In this document: piece after piece, positions 4,329-62,669 of the stretch
Position numbering within the stretch: the first letter of the stretch is position 1
Layout of the letters: every line of letters starts with the position of its first letter
Assembly (NCBI GenBank): GCA_017427405.1
Contig: JAFRSV010000011.1
Span: forward strand, 8,703-72,702
Direction: 5' to 3'
From: Alphaproteobacteria bacterium
GTDB taxonomy: Bacteria; Pseudomonadota; Alphaproteobacteria; Rs-D84
Length of the DNA stretch: 64,000 nt
Translations under genes and position numbers: made by a program
The notes under the pieces: generated by a model
Database searches by the model: none
What the model was told of the DNA's origin: nothing
Seen by the model: the letters and a program-made list of their open reading frames with translations, nothing else

Positions 4329-6376
4329 GCACCCATATTTAATGTGCGGTCAAATATGAACATTAAATCATTCACCCACGGTTCGATTGTTATCATATCA
4401 GATGCCGCGCGTGCCGCCAATTTGAACAAATCCCGATGATCGCGATAATCAACAAAATGATAATTTATCCATCCCGATTGTCGTGTTCCCAACAATTCGC
4501 CAACACCGCGCATCATCAAATCTTGTTCGGCAATCGCAAATCCATCATCCGTTTCAGTCAGTACATCCAAACGTTTAACCCCATCGGGCGATATATTATC
4601 GCCATAAAGTAAAATACAAAACGATTGTGCGTTTCCGCGTCCAACCCGCCCGCGCAATTGGTGCAACGCGGCCAGCCCAAACCTTTCCGCGTTTTCGATT
4701 ACAATTATTGTCGCATCGGGGACATCGATTCCAACCTCTATAACCGTTGTCGCAACAAGAATTTTTATGTCGGAACCGGCGCGCGCAAATTCCGCCATAA
4801 CTTTGTCGCGTTCATCTTTGGACATTTGGCCGTGTACCAACCCCGCGCAGGTAAAAACTTTCTGCAATTCATTATAACGATGCTCTGCGGCGGTCGCATC
4901 TGAATCTTCGGATTCCACAACCAACGGACAAATCCAGAAAACCTTGGCACCACCCGCCACCTGAACCCGCAGGCGGTCGATCAGTGCATTAATGCGCGAA
5001 ATTGGCAACTTGGTCGTCTTTATCGGCATGCGCCCCGCGGGCTTTTCATTTATAATCGAAACATCCATATCGCCATAGATTGTCATTGAAAGTGTTCGCG
5101 GTATCGGCGTCGCGGAAAGTGCCAACACATCCGGATTTTTCCCTTTGGCACGCAGTGCCTCACGTTGCGCCACGCCAAATCGATGTTGTTCGTCAATTAT
5201 AACCAAACCCAAATCTTTATATTCCACATCGTCGGAAAAAAGCGCATGCGTGCCGACAACCAACCGCGTGCGCCCCGACCGCAACGAAGTCAATTTTTCG
5301 CGTCGCGCCACACCTTTGTCACGACCGGTTAAAATATCACACACCAAACCCAATTTATCACACAACGGTTTTAGTTTTGCAAAGTGTTGCGCCGCCAATG
5401 TATCTGTCGGGGCAAGCAACGCCGTTTGTGCACCGAACTCTGCCATCATGACCACCCCCGCCATCGCAACCATTGTTTTACCGCAACCAACATCCCCCTG
5501 GACAAGGCGCATCATCGGAAAATCGCCCGACATATCGTGTGCAATTTCATCAATTGCGCGTTTTTGCGCGCCCGTCAAATCGAACGGCAATGATTCATAA
5601 AACCGTGGCAACAAATCATATTTTTTTGCGCGTGGGGTGCGCCGGTGACGTTCGTCTTTACGTGTGCGACGATTTGCGGCAATTGCAACCTGGTGCGACA
5701 ATAATTCGAAATACGCCAACTTTGCAATTGTATCAGACGTAGATTTTAATTCGTCATTACTTTGTGCATAGTGCGCGGCGCGCAATGCATCAAAAAATTC
5801 CACCAAGTGTTCGTCCGCACCAACAATTTTGTCGGACAATGCGGCAAAAACCTGGTCGCGGATATTTGTAAATGTTTTTTGCGTGATGCCTTCGCCCGCG
5901 CGATAAATTGCCTGAATCTTTGGAATTTTGTCGGCGTTTTGCACTTCTTCGATAAATTCGGGATGATTGATTGTAGGCGTGGTTGATTGTTCCAATTTAC
6001 CACTTATCACGCGCCATTCACCGATGGGTAATTTTTTCAGCCAATAATCCAAAAAGTTCGAATTAAAGAATTGAATAATCACCGTTTGACCAACCTTGTC
6101 CACACAGGTTATGCGTGTCGGGCTGCGCCGCCGACCAAAGGCACGCCCGATTTTATGTGCCTTTACCCGCACCATGGTTGTCACGATTTCGCCGGGCATT
6201 GCGGTTGCAACACTGTCAATCATTGCGCGGTCTTTGACATAAACGGGTATATGCAACAAAAAATCCAAAATCCGCCGATTCCCCAGCAAATCGGCAAACC
6301 GTGCCGCCAACACCGGCCCAACCCCGCGAATAAATTGCAGGTCCGTCGTCAAAAAATCGAACAGTTCTTTCTTCAT
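4325..6376 (-). CDS. recG: ATP-dependent DNA helicase RecG
   Basis: Wedge domain plus helicase motifs GDVGCGKT, DEQHRFG and SATPIPRTL. The start is placed at the internal MKKELFDF (ATG at 6376), because the 55-aa upstream extension in the ORF track is low-complexity and runs into the divergent promoter region. Confidence 0.9.
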   Translation of the reverse strand: MKKELFDFLTTDLQFIRGVGPVLAARFADLLGNRRILDFLLHIPVYVKDRAMIDSVATAMPGEIVTTMVRVKAHKIGRAFGRRRSPTRITCVDKVGQTVIIQFFNSNFLDYWLKKLPIGEWRVISGKLEQSTTPTINHPEFIEEVQNADKIPKIQAIYRAGEGITQKTFTNIRDQVFAALSDKIVGADEHLVEFFDALRAAHYAQSNDELKSTSDTIAKLAYFELLSHQVAIAANRRTRKDERHRRTPRAKKYDLLPRFYESLPFDLTGAQKRAIDEIAHDMSGDFPMMRLVQGDVGCGKTMVAMAGVVMMAEFGAQTALLAPTDTLAAQHFAKLKPLCDKLGLVCDILTGRDKGVARREKLTSLRSGRTRLVVGTHALFSDDVEYKDLGLVIIDEQHRFGVAQREALRAKGKNPDVLALSATPIPRTLSMTIYGDMDVSIINEKPAGRMPIKTTKLPISRINALIDRLRVQVAGGAKVFWICPLVVESEDSDATAAEHRYNELQKVFTCAGLVHGQMSKDERDKVMAEFARAGSDIKILVATTVIEVGIDVPDATIIVIENAERFGLAALHQLRGRVGRGNAQSFCILLYGDNISPDGVKRLDVLTETDDGFAIAEQDLMMRGVGELLGTRQSGWINYHFVDYRDHRDLFKLAARAASDMITIEPWVNDLMFIFDRTLNMGA

Positions 6377-6475
6377 ATATTGCAAAAATACAAAAAACCA
6401 TGCCATTATGGCAAGCAGAAAAAACTTGCAAAAAATTTGCGCAATTTGTATCCTGGGGTGCGAAAGGGGGTAATA

Positions 6476-14005: not shown

Positions 14006-15077
14006 ATGTTTTTGGTAAATGAAACTTTTAGTGAAATTTCCGATAACCTGAATAACATTCGGGGGTTTCTTTGACCCGGATAAACTCAGGACGCAAATCG
14101 CCGATTTAACCAAACAATCACTGTCGCCGGATTTATGGAACGACCCGGATGTGGCGCGCGCGATTATGCAGAAAAAATCCGCGGCCGAACGCGACCTGCG
14201 AATGATTGCGGATATGGAAGCGGAATTTGAAAACCTGCGCGAATTGTACGCGATTGCGCCCGACGATGCGGATGTAATCGCGGCAATTGAAAAATTGGCG
14301 GATGACGCCCGCCGCGCGGCGTATGTGACACTGTTTAACGAACCCGCGGACGGCAACAACGCATTTTTGTTTATTCAGGCCGGCGCCGGCGGGACCGAAG
14401 CCCAAGATTGGGCGCAAATGTTGGCGCGTATGTATTCGCGTTGGGCCGAACGGCATGGATTTGCGGTGGAAATAATCGAAGAACACGAAGGTGACACCGC
14501 CGGAATCAAAAGTATGACCATGCGAATTGTTGGCGAACGTGCGTATGGGTGGCTGCGTAATGAAATCGGCGTGCATCGGTTGGTGCGCATATCGCCGTTT
14601 AACGCAAACGGCAAACGACAAACAAGTTTCGCATCTGTTGACGTATGGCCGGATATCGACGACACAATCAATATCGAAATAAATGAAAAAGACCTGCGCA
14701 TTGACACATATCGTTCGTCGGGGGCGGGCGGGCAACACGTGAATAAAACCGACAGTGCCGTCCGCATTACGCATATTCCAACCGGAATAGTTGTGACGTG
14801 TCAGAACGAACGCAGTCAATTTCAGAATAAAGATATGGCAATGAAAATCTTGCGTTCACGTTTGTATGAATTGGAAATGGAAAAACGCGCCGCCGAAGAA
14901 GACGCCGCCAAGGCCGCACAGAAAAAAATAGAGTGGGGCAGTCAGATTCGAAACTATGTCTTGTATCCGTATCGTTTGGTCAAAGATGTCAGAACCGGTA
15001 CCGAAAACACCGATTCCGATGCGGTGTTGGACGGGAATTTGGACGAATTTATGTTGGCATTATTGCGCCGGGGGTAA
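14006..15077 (+). CDS. prfB: Peptide chain release factor 2, requires programmed +1 frameshift at 14069-14075
   Basis: ORF0 is MFLVNETFSEISDNLNNIRGFL, followed by an in-frame TGA. The site is GGGGG-TTT-CTT-TGA-C (SD-like element plus CUU UGA C). The +1 frame continues DPDKLRTQIADL... into the 14151 ORF, which carries the GGQ motif (SGAGGQHVN). Confidence 0.9.
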
Positions 15078-15130
15078 AATATCAGTATTGATTTTTTTGT
15101 GTTTTTGTGGTATAATTTCGAAAGAAACAG

Positions 15131-15176
15131 GACGGTTTAGCCGTCTTTTTCTTTGCCCGCTACGGCGGGTTTTTTA
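15131..15176 (+). terminator. Tandem rho-independent terminators after prfB
   Basis: GACGG-TTTAG-CCGTC plus T5, then CCCGC-TACG-GCGGG plus T6. Confidence 0.6.
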
Positions 15177-15196
15177 TATGCAAAAGGAGAAATATA

Positions 15197-15456
15197 ATGA
15201 ATACACCAAACTTTTTACGTAATTTGTTACAATCCAATAATTATTTAAACAAGAATAGTAACGAATATAAAAAAGCAAATGAATATCTGCAAAGTTTATT
15301 TCCGGGGCAAATACACTTGGACGTGGTGGTTTTTCTATTCATGGTGGCACAGAACCGGGCTCTGCGGGATGTATCGATTTAACATTCTCAATGGACAATT
15401 TTGCAAAATGGTTTGAAAATAATGGACAAGATCTGCTTATTAATGTAGAATACTAA
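15197..15456 (+). pseudogene. DUF2778/Tlde1-like (L,D-transpeptidase-fold) toxin gene, frame-disrupted or truncated
   Basis: The frame starting at ATG 15197 (MNTPNFLRNLL...) runs out. The -1 frame (15283-15453) reads ...GRGGFSIHGGTEPGSAGCIDL...LLINVEY*, which resembles the His/Cys catalytic motif of YkuD/DUF2778 domains. Its TAA overlaps the next ATG. Confidence 0.4.
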
Positions 15457-15800
15457 TGATGAAAAGAGTGATTCTGCCTCTTATGTATATAGTAGCTGTG
15501 TTTTTATCGGGCACCTTTTTTGTGCTGTTGGATGATCTGGCATATTTTGGTCGAATTGCAAAATACAGTGGTTTTTGGTGGCATATGTGTTCACATTTAC
15601 AAGACAACCAACAATTTGTTTGTATGGCGACCTATAACGTGTTTGGAATACTCATCGTTTTGGGTGCATTAATATGGATTAATTATATTCTTGCCGGGGT
15701 CTATGGAAGGAAAATATTTTTTATCCCCATATTTGGTGGTATCGTATTTTTGTTTTGTAAGTTAATGTTATGTTCCATCTTTAAAATAACATGCTTGTAA
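15456..15800 (+). CDS. Small multi-TM protein, candidate immunity protein 1
   Basis: 114 aa with 3-4 hydrophobic helices. The start overlaps the toxin stop (TAATG). Confidence 0.45.
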   Translation: MMKRVILPLMYIVAVFLSGTFFVLLDDLAYFGRIAKYSGFWWHMCSHLQDNQQFVCMATYNVFGILIVLGALIWINYILAGVYGRKIFFIPIFGGIVFLFCKLMLCSIFKITCL

Positions 15801-15848
15801 CATGATGACAACGTATTGATTTTTATAACTAGGTAGGTTGTTACATCT

Positions 15849-15899
15849 TGGTTGAAAAATACTGGAAAAGATTTGCTAGTGTATGTAGAATACAAATAA
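15849..15899 (+). pseudogene. Orphan 3'-end remnant of the toxin gene
   Basis: Translates to WLKNTGKDLLVYVEYK*; compare WFENNGQDLLINVEY* at 15406-15456. Confidence 0.5.
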
Positions 15900-15916
15900 G
15901 ACAAAAGGAACCAATT

Positions 15917-16267
15917 ATGAAAAAATGGAAACGTATCGCAATAATTTTCATTGGAATCGACATTTTTTTGATATTTATACTAATTAGTGAATATTACGAA
16001 TTTTTTATCAAAGATTGCCAAGATGCGTTTCCTTTTCATTATTGCCCGTGGGGTAGCGAATCTATGGGTATGGCGTGGAGAAGCGCCGATGCGTATTTGA
16101 CAGGCATTGTTTCGTCTTGTTCGATCTTATTGTTTTTTGTTCCGGTATCGTTATATTATTATTTTAAACAAAAAAACTATAAAGTTTCTTTACTTTTAGC
16201 AATAAGCCCAATTTTAATATCATGGTTAAAGGTGGGGCTAGAATATATTTTCTATTATTATGCGTAG
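15917..16267 (+). CDS. Small multi-TM protein, candidate immunity protein 2
   Basis: 116 aa (MKKWKRIAIIFIG...). RBS AAAGGA. Lies directly after toxin remnant 2. Confidence 0.45.
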   Translation: MKKWKRIAIIFIGIDIFLIFILISEYYEFFIKDCQDAFPFHYCPWGSESMGMAWRSADAYLTGIVSSCSILLFFVPVSLYYYFKQKNYKVSLLLAISPILISWLKVGLEYIFYYYA

Positions 16268-16272
16268 TTAAC

Positions 16273-16323
16273 AGGAGAAATATAAATAATGGACAAGATT
16301 TGCTTATTAATGTAGAATACTAA
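16273..16323 (+). pseudogene. Internally deleted toxin gene: RBS/start region fused to the last 12 codons
   Basis: AGGAGAAATATAA (identical to 15185-15197) is joined to AATAATGGACAAGATTTGCTTATTAATGTAGAATACTAA, which differs from 15418-15456 by one nt. Confidence 0.6.
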
Positions 16324-16324
16324 C

Positions 16325-16654
16325 ATGCAAGAAACAAATAAATTTCCTTTATGGCTATGTGGGGCAATATGCCTATCAATTGCTTTCATATTTTGTAATG
16401 ATATGAACCAAATTTTGTGTAATGGGAAATGGGAAGGTCTGTTGTATGGTTTTTTACCATACAACAGACTTGTTAACATAGATATAATCCTGGTAATAGT
16501 ATCGTTATTTGTTTCGGGGGTATGTTTGTATAAAATTCTACATACAAATGCCCGTAAATTACAAACTATATTGATTTACATCATTTTTGGGGGGCTTGGA
16601 TTCGTAATTATCATGGCTCTCTTCATGTTAAGTATATATTTAATGATGCCATAG
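16325..16654 (+). CDS. Small multi-TM protein, candidate immunity protein 3
   Basis: 109 aa with 3 hydrophobic helices. The start is 1 nt after the stop of remnant 3. Confidence 0.45.
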   Translation: MQETNKFPLWLCGAICLSIAFIFCNDMNQILCNGKWEGLLYGFLPYNRLVNIDIILVIVSLFVSGVCLYKILHTNARKLQTILIYIIFGGLGFVIIMALFMLSIYLMMP

Positions 16655-16763: not shown

Positions 16764-16840
16764 GCACCCATAGCACAACTGGATAATGCGTCGGCCTCCG
16801 AAGCCGGAGATTGCGCGTTCGAATCGCGCTGGGTGCGCCA
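16764..16840 (+). tRNA. tRNA-Arg (anticodon CCG)
   Basis: Hand fold collinear with E. coli tRNA-Arg(CCG): acceptor GCACCCA/TGGGTGC, anticodon loop CTCCGAA, T-arm GCGCG-TTCGAAT-CGCGC, G73, CCA. Confidence 0.9.
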
Positions 16841-17072
16841 TAAATACAAAGTGACGCAGAATGCGACATTTTGTATTTATCATGGGCACTCCGCGATTTG
16901 GACGCGCAGCGTTCGACACGATAGTTGGCAAGAACAAGCGTAAAAACGCGCGGTTCGGGCCTTACGAGTGGTGAGCAAAGCGAACTATCCGCTGGGTGCG
17001 CCATAAATACAAAGTGAGGCAGAATGCGACATTTTGTATTTATCATGGGCACTCCGCGATTTGGACGCGCAG
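16828..17072. repeat. 82-nt direct repeat (16828-16909 and 16991-17072) starting inside the tRNA-Arg 3' end
   Basis: The two copies differ at one position. The first copy includes the last 13 nt of tRNA-Arg. Each copy contains the hairpin ATAAATACAAA...TTTGTATTTAT. Confidence 0.85.
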
Positions 17073-17110
17073 GTTTCTGGGGGGAAAAATAACCAATCGG
17101 TCGATATAAA

Positions 17111-17551
17111 ATGTTAAAGTTTTTATCTTTATTTTCCGTTTTGTTTCTTGTCGCCTGTAACAGCGTTTATCTTAAACCGAACACGATGGTGCCGGGGACA
17201 ACGGTTTATGCATCGCGTGGCGGAAACACCATGACCCGCGGGATAAAGGAAAAATTAGAAGAACACGGATTTACCGTAAATGTGGGCAGTTTAAAGGACG
17301 AATCTTCGATTGATGTTGATAAATTTACGGTTCCCAAAAACACACGCTATATCGTCCGCGTTAGCGAGCAGGCGGAAACATTTATGCCGTATTGGTGCAT
17401 ATTTAACGGATTTTGGTGGTGGCGATTTAATGTTTCAATTGCCGACCAGAAAACCGGTGAAGAAATTTTGTCTTGGCGCGGACGCGGTTGCCAAAACAGT
17501 TCTTTGCGCAAACTGGACCGATTCTTGGACGAATTAGAAATCAAAGAATAA
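17111..17551 (+). CDS. Hypothetical lipoprotein
   Basis: Lipobox LFLVAC at residues 12-17. 146 aa. No family recognised. Confidence 0.55.
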   Translation: MLKFLSLFSVLFLVACNSVYLKPNTMVPGTTVYASRGGNTMTRGIKEKLEEHGFTVNVGSLKDESSIDVDKFTVPKNTRYIVRVSEQAETFMPYWCIFNGFWWWRFNVSIADQKTGEEILSWRGRGCQNSSLRKLDRFLDELEIKE

Positions 17552-57519: not shown

Positions 57520-57637
57520 AAATAAAATCTTAACAAATTCGCTTTACGCGAATTTTTTGATTTTAATATAATTTTCCCCATTGAAAAACATGGCGCGTTT
57601 CCTATATAATATAATGTCAGAGCCAAGAGGTGTCACC

Positions 57638-58363
57638 ATGATGAATCAAAATTCTAAACCACAAATCACTGAAATCATAAACGCAATGCAATCGCCCACC
57701 AAATGGAACACATATAAAATGACCCAGGCCCGTAGAATCGCCGGCAAAATAGAAAAAACAAAATCAGAACAATTTGCGGAATACGTTGATGGTGTTTTTA
57801 TGTCGGTTTGCGAAGAATTAAATGTCTTTGATATGGCACGCGATTGGGCGAAAAAATCGGCCCCCGAAAAATTGGCTGTGGCGGGCAACATTATCAAACG
57901 TTTTGTTGAACGCGTACAATCGGACACCCAAACAGGTCGTGCGAAAAAGTATAACGATAAAGTGGTGGAATCCGTTCCAAAAATTTCCGTGTCGCACGTG
58001 ACCGACGGTCAAATGTCGGTATCACAGCGGGGCATGGTCAATGTGAACCCAAATTTTCGGTATTATGATAATTTGATAAATTTTCTTATGGACCTGCGTC
58101 ACGAAAGCACCCATATCGTTGACATGTTTTTCCCGTCAATTAGTCCACTTGATACGAATATTCGTGACCTTTCGATGGCGTTTTATATAAATCCACGCGA
58201 AGATATGAATTTATACAAACAAAATCCATTGGAATTAAACGCGAATATGCGCCGTCGCGAATTTGGTAATAAATTACAGGAAAAAATCACGCTATGCGAA
58301 TATGTGCGGGTGCAAAGGTTGGTTGGCAATGCGGTTGCACGCGGAATTCCACGGGGGCGTTAA
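57638..58363 (+). CDS. Hypothetical protein with HExxH motif (possible zinc metallopeptidase)
   Basis: ATG at 57638 after RBS AAGAGG. LRHESTHIVD contains HESTH. No signal peptide. The stop overlaps the next ATG (TAATG). Confidence 0.4.
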   Translation: MMNQNSKPQITEIINAMQSPTKWNTYKMTQARRIAGKIEKTKSEQFAEYVDGVFMSVCEELNVFDMARDWAKKSAPEKLAVAGNIIKRFVERVQSDTQTGRAKKYNDKVVESVPKISVSHVTDGQMSVSQRGMVNVNPNFRYYDNLINFLMDLRHESTHIVDMFFPSISPLDTNIRDLSMAFYINPREDMNLYKQNPLELNANMRRREFGNKLQEKITLCEYVRVQRLVGNAVARGIPRGR

Positions 58364-62153: not shown

Positions 62154-62669
62154 TCATAAATTCAATGCGTAAATTCCGTTTTCATATATTTTTAGTTCAA
62201 TTTCGCGTCGGCGAATAAGGCCAGAACTCACGCGACCGCTGGTTTTGTTCCATGCCCGCCACGCCGCGCCCAGATTAAAGTATCGCGCACTTTTGAAATT
62301 CGGATTGTTTATATATTTTACAACCGTCGAATTTGCAAAATTCCGCGCGCCAATGTTAAAGCACAGCATTACCAAGGCATCAAATTGATTTTGCCGCAGG
62401 TTCACCGTTATCGCGTCGCATACCGCGCGTTCCGCGTATCCTAAATCCGCGCGCAAAAGTTCCGTTGCCGTATCTTCATCAATTCCGTCACGAAAATCTT
62501 CACCCGGTTTAATTAAATGCCCATATCCAATCGTTGCGCCAGCCGGCAGGGGCGCACCAGTCGTGATCGGTTGCCCGTTTTTATCGTCGTATATAACATG
62601 CCGGCCATTACGCATGACGCGGCCTTCGCATTGTTTCAATATGCGAATACCATTATCACTTAGTTTCAT
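62154..62669 (-). CDS. Phage-type lysozyme (glycoside hydrolase family 24)
   Basis: T4-lysozyme-like catalytic pattern: LKQCEG (Glu), VIYDDKNGQP (Asp), TIGYGH (Thr). QFDALVMLCFNIG. Confidence 0.8.
   Translation of the reverse strand: MKLSDNGIRILKQCEGRVMRNGRHVIYDDKNGQPITTGAPLPAGATIGYGHLIKPGEDFRDGIDEDTATELLRADLGYAERAVCDAITVNLRQNQFDALVMLCFNIGARNFANSTVVKYINNPNFKSARYFNLGAAWRAWNKTSGRVSSGLIRRREIELKIYENGIYALNL

Follow-up and report, generated by a model that had tools for sequence, protein, structure and literature searches.

Three intact genes for small membrane proteins stand in tandem at positions 15181-16654 of a 64-kb stretch of alphaproteobacterial DNA (contig JAFRSV010000011.1, lineage Rs-D84; 'the window' below always means this whole stretch), each preceded by a fragment of another gene. 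The question raised by the locus is what the fragments once encoded and what the intact genes are still doing beside them. The original prediction took the region for a decaying array of toxin and immunity genes, in which remnants of DUF2778/Tlde1-like toxins were each followed by a small protein with several transmembrane (TM) segments. Reading of the sequence and translation in all frames recovered every feature of the three units at its predicted position, and the AT-richness of the region (GC content 0.32, against 0.445 for the whole window) and its proximity to a tRNA-Arg gene were likewise confirmed. We consider it very likely that the region is what remains of a polymorphic toxin locus that has lost its toxins and kept several immunity genes. 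As intact alleles show, the ancestral gene encoded a protein made in the cytoplasm without a signal peptide and composed of a carrier, a linker and an exchangeable enzyme that attacks peptidoglycan. An illegitimate deletion of 844 bp has killed the gene of unit 1, and two older toxin copies are cut to their final 16 and 12 codons. The products of the intact genes, here called immA, immB and immC, would reside in the inner membrane, each neutralising one toxin subtype through a periplasmic loop, and the strain would not attack but would resist at least three toxin types of co-resident strains.

Unit 1 carries the most informative fragment. Its open reading frame (ORF) now extends for 61 amino acids, to a stop at 15382. 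Over 100 full-length proteins have N-termini homologous to the one encoded here, and in a database search with the joined peptide the first 37 residues proved to be a conserved module preceding different continuations. The -1 frame reads ...GANTLGRGGFSIHGGTEPGSAGCIDLTFSMDNFAKWFENNGQDLLINVEY as far as a TAA at 15454-15456, which overlaps the ATG of immA at 15456, and it keeps a His...Cys motif (IHGG...SAGCI). Among the relatives compared (L-numbers denote their loci or contigs, P-numbers their proteins) there is an intact allele of this gene, P0042 on contig L033, which is 96% identical to the -1 frame peptide and is followed in L033 by a 114-aa ORF 99% identical to immA. Window positions 14328-15321 align with L033 1-996 at 93% identity and positions 15308-15812 with L033 1827-2331 at 99%. 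Codon 38 is joined to the final 48 codons out of frame, codons 39 to approximately 320 having been lost, and since 844 = 3 x 281 + 1 the deletion itself causes the frame break. With 48 of approximately 130 residues of the enzyme domain remaining, out of frame, no toxin can be made from unit 1 of the window. The truncated ORF recurs on 18 contigs of several metagenomic origins. Nine loci were examined, L006-L013 and the window, and all share the downstream gene layout; L006, a 98-kb rumen-type metagenome contig, is identical to the window. The intact type-A allele is known from a single contig that was present in two samples. No GTDB species genome gave an exact match to the deletion junction, indicating that the window's species or haplotype is not among the representatives.

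The nature of the missing enzyme emerges from the same peptide. Against Pfam it matches PF10908 (Tlde1_dom), weakly though specifically, with an expectation value (E) of 0.0017 over profile positions 70-109 of 120, and YkuD (PF03734) more weakly; the window retains the final third of the Tlde1 domain. Longer relatives exceed the PF10908 gathering cut-off (L002, 30.6 bits; P0152, 33.8 bits). A full-length type-A relative, P0027, was modelled (predicted local distance difference test, pLDDT, 80), and the top three Foldseek matches of this intact relative in the PDB were all Salmonella Tlde1a structures (7uo8, 7uma and 7uo3; E 7e-8 to 4e-7, template-modelling score 0.59-0.60), followed by YkuD and mycobacterial L,D-transpeptidases. 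The published catalytic motif of Tlde1 is HXX14-17(S/T)HGCh (PMC9638812); every Tlde1-type member of the present family retains the His and Cys of that motif (IHGG...PGSAGCID). The lost cargo enzyme is predicted to be a Tlde1-type L,D-carboxypeptidase/transpeptidase. The assignment to DUF2778/Tlde1 is supported by the weak profile match, the intact allele and the fold of the full-length relative alike, and the intact alleles identify the repeated segments ending in VEY and a stop as toxin gene 3' ends and not as parts of an unrelated gene. Among the things that had gone unseen are that two Tlde1 subtypes are represented and that the start at 15197 belongs to a conserved carrier of approximately 200 residues with a motif resembling MuF.

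What the gene looked like before its decay can be judged from its intact relatives. A scan of species-representative genomes with an alignment of the N-terminal region yielded 19 loci, all from uncultured gut or rumen Alphaproteobacteria, two of them named Candidatus Enterousia. The gene is intact in 13 of these 19 and encodes 364-397 aa, intact alleles overall reaching 430 aa. The intact proteins lack a signal peptide and comprise a constant N-terminal region of approximately 200 residues, a Lys/Pro-rich linker (KPISSKVYKGQKPE...) and a variable C-terminal domain. The last may be a Tlde1 domain of type A (tail ...KWFENNGHDLIINVKY) or type B (tail ...SWLESTGKDLLIYVKYK), Phage_lysozyme, GH108 with PG_binding_3, Peptidase_M23, PG_binding_1 together with Tlde1, a pesticin-like lysozyme (one distant family member matches Pesticin, PF16754) or, in one strain, PfkB plus nucleoside deoxyribosyltransferase. 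Attachment of a constant N-terminus to unrelated C-terminal toxin domains is the arrangement by which polymorphic toxins are recognised. A search with a full-length member returned 465 relatives, named, if at all, 'DUF2778 domain-containing protein' or 'glycoside hydrolase family protein'; the best 120 of the 465 all carry PF04233 and/or PF10908/PF03734, PF00959 or PF05838.

Toxin genes are broken in relatives of the window too. In L001 a conserved Trp codon has changed from TGG to TGA (6454-6456), a +1 G insertion (TACGGATATG) is common to L002 (at about 6155-6165), L003-L005 and L014, P0001 bears an in-frame deletion, and truncations are found in L022, L027, L029 and L030. The immunity genes persist throughout. 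Frequent loss of toxins with retention of immunity fits a population in which immune non-producers are common. An alternative genetic code was considered for the TGA of L001 and rejected as a general explanation, the neighbouring housekeeping genes of that locus being full-length in the standard code. The strains that share the +1 G insertion differ in their cargo, and one may ask if such breaks are sometimes tolerated or bypassed.

The remnants in units 2 and 3 are shorter. A 40-nt repeat, corresponding to the conserved toxin 3' end, is present three times in the array (15417-15456, 15857-15896 and 16284-16323), the repeat finder giving identities of 100, 80 and 98%, far beyond chance. The unit 2 tail is identical to that of the intact type-B allele P0049 of L034, and to that of L002; window positions 15841-16323 align with L034 1324-1806 at 99.6%, and the L034 strain is 98-99.6% identical to the window over shared DNA. 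P0049 was found on this one contig. Unit 3 is the product of a deletion, with 2 nt of microhomology, from the start codon to the final 12 codons, so that AGGAGAAATATAA (16273-16285) abuts NNGQDLLINVEY and its stop (16285-16323). The same junction occurs in L002 and, before immA, in L034, from which it follows that this deletion is older than the other events. Judged by their tails, units 1 and 3 on the one hand and unit 2 on the other derive from two different Tlde1 subtypes.

Comparison with L034 also provides a glimpse of modules on the move. Their order is A, B, C in the window but B, A, C in L034, where the sequence before immC is a mosaic with the left boundary of the window's unit 2 but a type-A tail. 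The mosaic junctions fall inside the 40-nt tails, and the retained tails may well serve as recombination substrates, offering short homology for module shuffling. Orphan immunity genes are found in L019, L022, L024 and L034, and orphan lysozyme tips in L021, L025, L026 and L035. Restoration of a toxin from silent cassettes was considered as well and rejected, since the window has just the remnants of 12-16 codons.

The case for immunity depends on what accompanies each toxin type. The proteins encoded by immA, immB and immC have three hydrophobic segments each. Their basic residues are located N-terminally and in the connection between segments 2 and 3, which under the positive-inside rule would place the N-terminus in the cytoplasm and a conserved loop of approximately 30 residues after segment 1 in the periplasm. 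In the immA and immB products this loop contains a largely conserved Cys pair. NCBIfam gave nothing meaningful for the unit 1 fragment and the three TM proteins, Pfam only noise for the TM proteins, and a word-indexed search for homologues of immA yielded no sequences beyond its own cluster. Immunity families were built from the ORFs of the compared loci. Relatives of immA follow four of the five type-A toxins (L033, 99% identity; L015, 55%; L025, 50%; L023, 31%), while relatives of immB, at 63-100% identity, follow all five type-B toxins (L002, L034, L021, L024 and L026) and no other type. Lysozyme cargo is followed by a lipoprotein of 111-114 aa and by no TM protein. A relative of immC (30% identity) lies directly after a divergent type-A-like toxin in L028. 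In hhalign, immA and immC are distantly related (93.8% probability, E 1.7e-7) and immB stands apart, which matches the type-A-like tails before immA and immC and the type-B tail before immB. Identity matrices of the toxins and of the proteins encoded downstream have a block structure, the downstream gene co-varying with toxin type. Such co-segregation of toxin subtype and downstream family across species supports cognate immunity and, with the three downstream genes of the window all intact, upholds the idea that toxins have been lost here and immunity kept.

The retained tails may have a further use. A consensus scan placed a sigma-70-like site within each of them (Table 1). The hexamers are built from the Gly codon GGA and the Val-Lys/Glu-Tyr codons GTA-RAA-TAY, and are kept in 10 of 11 Tlde1-type genes of other species. 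A second ATG of immA (15459) lies 8 nt after the -10 element. In pairs of the immA and immC types there is no Shine-Dalgarno sequence and the ATG is found 7-8 nt after the -10, that is at the expected transcript start, making leaderless immunity mRNA possible; immB-type genes have a 20-nt leader with AAGGA. As the unit 1 ORF stops at 15382, translational coupling of immA to the toxin is lost and a promoter in the tail would matter. The tails may have survived by providing the immunity genes with promoter and translation signals. The promoter-like site that scores best in the region lies upstream of the toxin gene, and between this site and the toxin's ribosome-binding site (RBS) there are two terminator-like hairpins, which probably end transcription of prfB. 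Taken together, the elements at 15088-15178 could be prfB terminators or a regulated leader.

Table 1. Features of the array and its immediate flanks (positions in the window).
Feature	Position	Strand	Remarks
prfB	14151-15077		upstream of array
Promoter-like TTGATT-17-TATAAT with extended TG	15088-15116	+	10/12 matches, best of region; upstream of toxin gene
Terminator-like hairpin 1	15129-15147
Terminator-like hairpin 2	15155-15170
Unit 1 RBS, AGGAGAAATATAA	15185-15197	+	AGGAG; ATG at 15197
Unit 1 RBS, ATG and codons 1-38 of constant N-terminal region (MNTPNFLRNLLQSNNYLNKNSNEYKKANEYLQSLFPGQ)	15185-15312	+
Deletion junction	15308-15312	+	CAAAT microhomology within 13/16 patch (CAAATRCAMTTGGAYG); 844 bp missing relative to L033
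Type-A Tlde1 cargo, final 48 codons and stop	15313-15456	+	-1 frame relative to start
Promoter-like TGGACA-17-TAGAAT	15423-15451	+	inside unit 1 toxin 3' end; consensus scan
immA	15456-15800	+	intact 114-aa ORF, 3 TM; putative immunity protein for type-A Tlde1
Unit 2, type-B Tlde1 gene remnant, WLKNTGKDLLVYVEYK and stop	15849-15899	+	final 16 codons and stop
Promoter-like TGGAAA-17-TAGAAT	15863-15891	+	inside unit 2 tail; consensus scan
immB	15917-16267	+	intact 116-aa ORF, 3 TM; own Shine-Dalgarno AAAGGAA; putative immunity protein for type-B Tlde1
Unit 3, type-A-like toxin gene remnant	16273-16323	+	RBS fragment, final 12 codons and stop
Promoter-like TGGACA-17-TAGAAT	16290-16318	+	inside unit 3 tail; consensus scan
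immC	16325-16654	+	intact 109-aa ORF, 3 TM; putative immunity protein for a further type-A-like toxin
tRNA-Arg(ccg)	16764-16840	+	right-hand boundary of array; same position in L002

Several points weigh against this picture of the array or against parts of it. The window fragment scores 19.2 bits, below the PF10908 gathering cut-off of 30.1, because only 48 residues remain. The spacing from His to Cys is 10 residues and Ala replaces the His before Gly-Cys, both departures from the motif published for Tlde1 (PMC9638812). A type-A-like toxin in L035 is paired with an unrelated 117-aa protein, and the evidence for an immunity role of the three TM proteins is of one kind, co-occurrence, by which that role is the most likely one. 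With regard to the tail promoters, an AT-rich region is rich in such sites (20 were detected, where shuffled sequences would give 9.4), and the hexamers coincide with conserved codons, meaning that their conservation may be a by-product of protein conservation. Lastly, the many broken relatives might reflect general gene loss and not selection for immune non-producers.

Three other explanations were weighed. According to the one that survives best, the carrier-hydrolases are tools for breaching the wall of a host or prey bacterium in a partner-dependent lifestyle, the downstream genes giving self-protection and one of the tools having been lost in the window. Rs-D84 and Enterousia genomes of less than 1 Mb, with predicted uptake of metabolites from other cells (PMC12306168), would suit such a lifestyle, as would the almost exclusively wall-directed cargo and the 7377-aa surface-repeat protein encoded in the window. 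Nevertheless, subtype diversity within species and arrays of cognate and orphan immunity genes are the signature of conflict among close relatives, and attack on an unrelated host calls for no immunity to several alleles; we regard this explanation as improbable.

Slightly more improbable still is that the small TM proteins are holins or export helpers and the locus a degenerate lysis cassette. Proteins of 109-116 aa with three TM segments, encoded next to genes for peptidoglycan hydrolases without signal peptides, are what such a cassette would contain, and there is a phage-type motif in the carrier region. However, a holin would have no reason to switch family with the toxin subtype as these proteins do, nor would a lipoprotein be expected in place of a TM protein after lysozyme cargo, and three different TM genes have been kept here with no enzyme gene left. 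The C-termini are hydrophobic, without the charged tail usual in holins, no phage genes lie nearby, and neither immA nor immB has a match in PHROG. The remaining explanation, that the break in frame arose through faulty sequencing or assembly at the adjoining GGGG and T runs, where a miscall near 15296-15308 had been suspected, and that unit 1 encodes a short functional toxin, can be dismissed: the break coincides exactly with the 844-bp deletion junction relative to the intact allele, the occurrence of the resulting ORF on 18 contigs from several sources excludes a sequencing error, and a repaired product would still possess just 48 of approximately 130 domain residues.

In the intact proteins, the C-terminal half of Pfam Phage_Mu_F (PF04233; profile positions 57-110 of 112) matches the carrier at residues of approximately 127-176, exceeding the cut-off of 29.6 bits in L002 (37.9) and P0140 (30.1) and scoring 18-28 bits in the other members scanned. 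PHROG head-morphogenesis and minor-head families match residues 130-185 only. This MuF-like part, which is deleted in the window copy, is a Cys/His knuckle of some 50 residues; the rest of the N-terminal region appears from modelling to be a novel fold. The 202-residue model (pLDDT 82) is folded and helical rather than disordered. Foldseek found nothing below E 0.4 for it in the PDB, a profile of the region had no match among PDB sequences, and in BFVD the model matched only stretches of 45-75 residues of phage minor capsid and head-morphogenesis proteins. In a profile search of 1.84 billion representatives approximately 20 clusters span the whole carrier region, many phage-type proteins matching positions 130-200 only, and carrier residues 1-118 had no match in 2.9 million IMG/VR contigs, GenBank phages or PLSDB.

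The original prediction held that the window has no delivery genes such as those of a type VI secretion system (T6SS), and neither secretion-system genes nor genes for phage structural proteins were indeed found there. Portal, terminase, capsid, T6SS and type IV secretion system genes are absent from the window and from the 5-10 kb around the genes in the other contexts examined, among them L001-L005 and L035-L037. The family is not phage-, plasmid- or T6SS-linked in the contexts examined, sharing one motif with the phage MuF toxins and failing their defining context. Delivery by way of the MuF-like knuckle, through association with a capsid- or portal-like particle, is our best guess, though less likely than not, and release in the manner of the bacteriocins colicin M and pesticin is about equally likely; the data are compatible with either route.

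Comparison with four known systems places the family more precisely. The T6 pairs Tlde1/Tldi1 of Salmonella (PMC9638812) have the same cargo fold (PF10908, with the conserved His and Cys) and, as predicted here, combine a peptidoglycan toxin that acts in the periplasm with an adjacent immunity gene. In the present family, by contrast, a 200-aa carrier precedes the domain, which is its C-terminal cargo and not a stand-alone effector, T6SS genes are lacking near every locus examined, the immunity proteins are three-TM membrane proteins unrelated to the periplasmic Tldi1, and the active-site spacing is shorter (H-x9-C, SAGC). The MuF toxins of temperate phages (PMC5576092, PMC3482391, PMC11699363) also join an N-terminal constant part with a PF04233 match to an exchangeable C-terminal toxin, with small downstream immunity ORFs and additional immunity genes. 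Here, however, the match covers only about 50 residues, and residues 1-120 have no relative in the PDB, BFVD, IMG/VR, GenBank phages or PLSDB. The present genes are located on the chromosome, next to housekeeping and tRNA genes, and neither portal nor terminase genes occur within 10 kb of them; the cargo would act on the cell wall, unlike that of characterised MuF toxins, whose action is cytoplasmic.

Orphan arrays of contact-dependent inhibition (CDI) and Rhs systems similarly combine a constant N-terminus with variable tips and have the cognate immunity gene directly after the toxin. They too include displaced orphan modules, and some strains possess immunity but no toxin. The proteins described here differ in being approximately 375 aa long, without repeats or a known secretion domain, and their modules are bounded by the 40-nt conserved toxin 3' end in place of a VENN or PxxxxDPxGL-type junction. 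Colicin M and pesticin resemble them in size (270-400 aa), in the absence of a signal peptide and in a C-terminal domain acting in the periplasm, and the immunity proteins would likewise sit in the inner membrane and face the periplasm. A possible further parallel is that immunity genes of colicin operons are transcribed from a separate promoter located within the toxin gene. In contrast to colicin M and pesticin, no TonB box or disordered translocation domain was recognised, no motif search having been aimed at these, and the genes are chromosomal with no lysis gene present.

The window locus itself is an ordinary orphan-immunity array, that of a non-producer with several immunities. The family of several hundred proteins to which it belongs is apparently an undescribed variant of polymorphic toxin; our literature search found no paper combining 'MuF' with 'Tlde1' or 'DUF2778'. 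That the family constitutes an undescribed polymorphic toxin system spanning the Rs-D84/Ca. Enterousia lineage, with a novel N-terminal domain of approximately 200 residues, wall enzymes, tail promoters and a new delivery route, is a tentative proposal about which we are more doubtful than convinced. If it is true, delivery would involve a domesticated capsid- or portal-type particle or some other export path, and transcription of the immunity genes would depend on promoters lying within the toxin's final codons. A MuF motif apart from phages could help define the role of the motif in toxin trafficking, and the natural pairs of Tlde1 subtype and membrane immunity protein could be used for studies of specificity. 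Members of Enterousia and the order Rs-D84 mostly have genomes below 1 Mb, and a life at the expense of other cells has been predicted for them (PMC12306168). Judging by the names of related metagenome-assembled genomes, the window probably comes from this group, from an uncultured gut or rumen bacterium related to Ca. Enterousia. Polymorphic wall-degrading toxins are unexpected in such bacteria and inform us about their ecology.

A single ORF of 7377 aa with Listeria-Bacteroides repeat domains (PF09479) occupies positions 27743-49876 (+) of the window, 500 nt after a tRNA-Met gene. At 22 kb it accounts for a strikingly large fraction of a genome presumed to be smaller than 1 Mb, and its product may be a cell-contact protein.

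In close relatives of the window the order prfB, toxin gene, small ORFs, tRNA-Arg, lipoprotein, rubrerythrin, obg is syntenic. In other species the toxin gene starts 200-650 nt 3' of a tRNA gene (approximately 1 kb in L032), with no integrase visible. The tRNA upstream is Ser in eight loci, Arg in two and Asp/Glu in one, a tally covering L015, L016, L023, L024, L026, L027, L029, L032, L001, L031 and L020. Since the tRNA genes vary across species, the locus evidently moves between sites. A role for tRNA-Arg as integration site was considered and is unsupported: the toxin loci of relatives lie 3' of other tRNAs, the interval between prfB and tRNA-Arg is unoccupied in L016, and no integrase was seen. 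Beside the tRNA-Arg of the window a 163-nt unit occurs twice (16827-17077, 97% identity), each copy opening with the last 14 nt of the tRNA gene. Positions 16841-17115 are missing from the syntenic L002, and the duplicated unit may represent a scar of integration or excision, or else a small repeat element. A 260-aa ORF (57581-58363, +) directly follows the tRNA-Ser(cga) gene of the window, where relatives carry the toxin locus; it has no Pfam match and contains a HESTH (HExxH-like) motif.

Some further observations concern the cargo. In L005 (6001-7228) the constant N-terminus, as far as residue 76 or so, is fused to the PfkB-like and nucleoside 2-deoxyribosyltransferase domains, which replace both the MuF knuckle and the wall enzyme. 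A second gene matching Phage_Mu_F in L036 (12135-13880, -) adjoins a gene for a MafB19-like deaminase and lies 2 kb from a GH108-type toxin, an arrangement suggesting that cytoplasmic toxins, too, are among the cargo of the family or of a sister family. Finally, the window contains a stand-alone Phage_lysozyme gene (62154-62669, -), followed by an 86-aa ORF and tRNA-Ser(gct). Its 171-aa product is 62% identical to the lysozyme cargo of the family and starts with MKLSDNG, the exact start of the cargo cassette in the full-length toxins; the gene may be an orphan cargo gene or the source from which lysozyme cargo was drawn.

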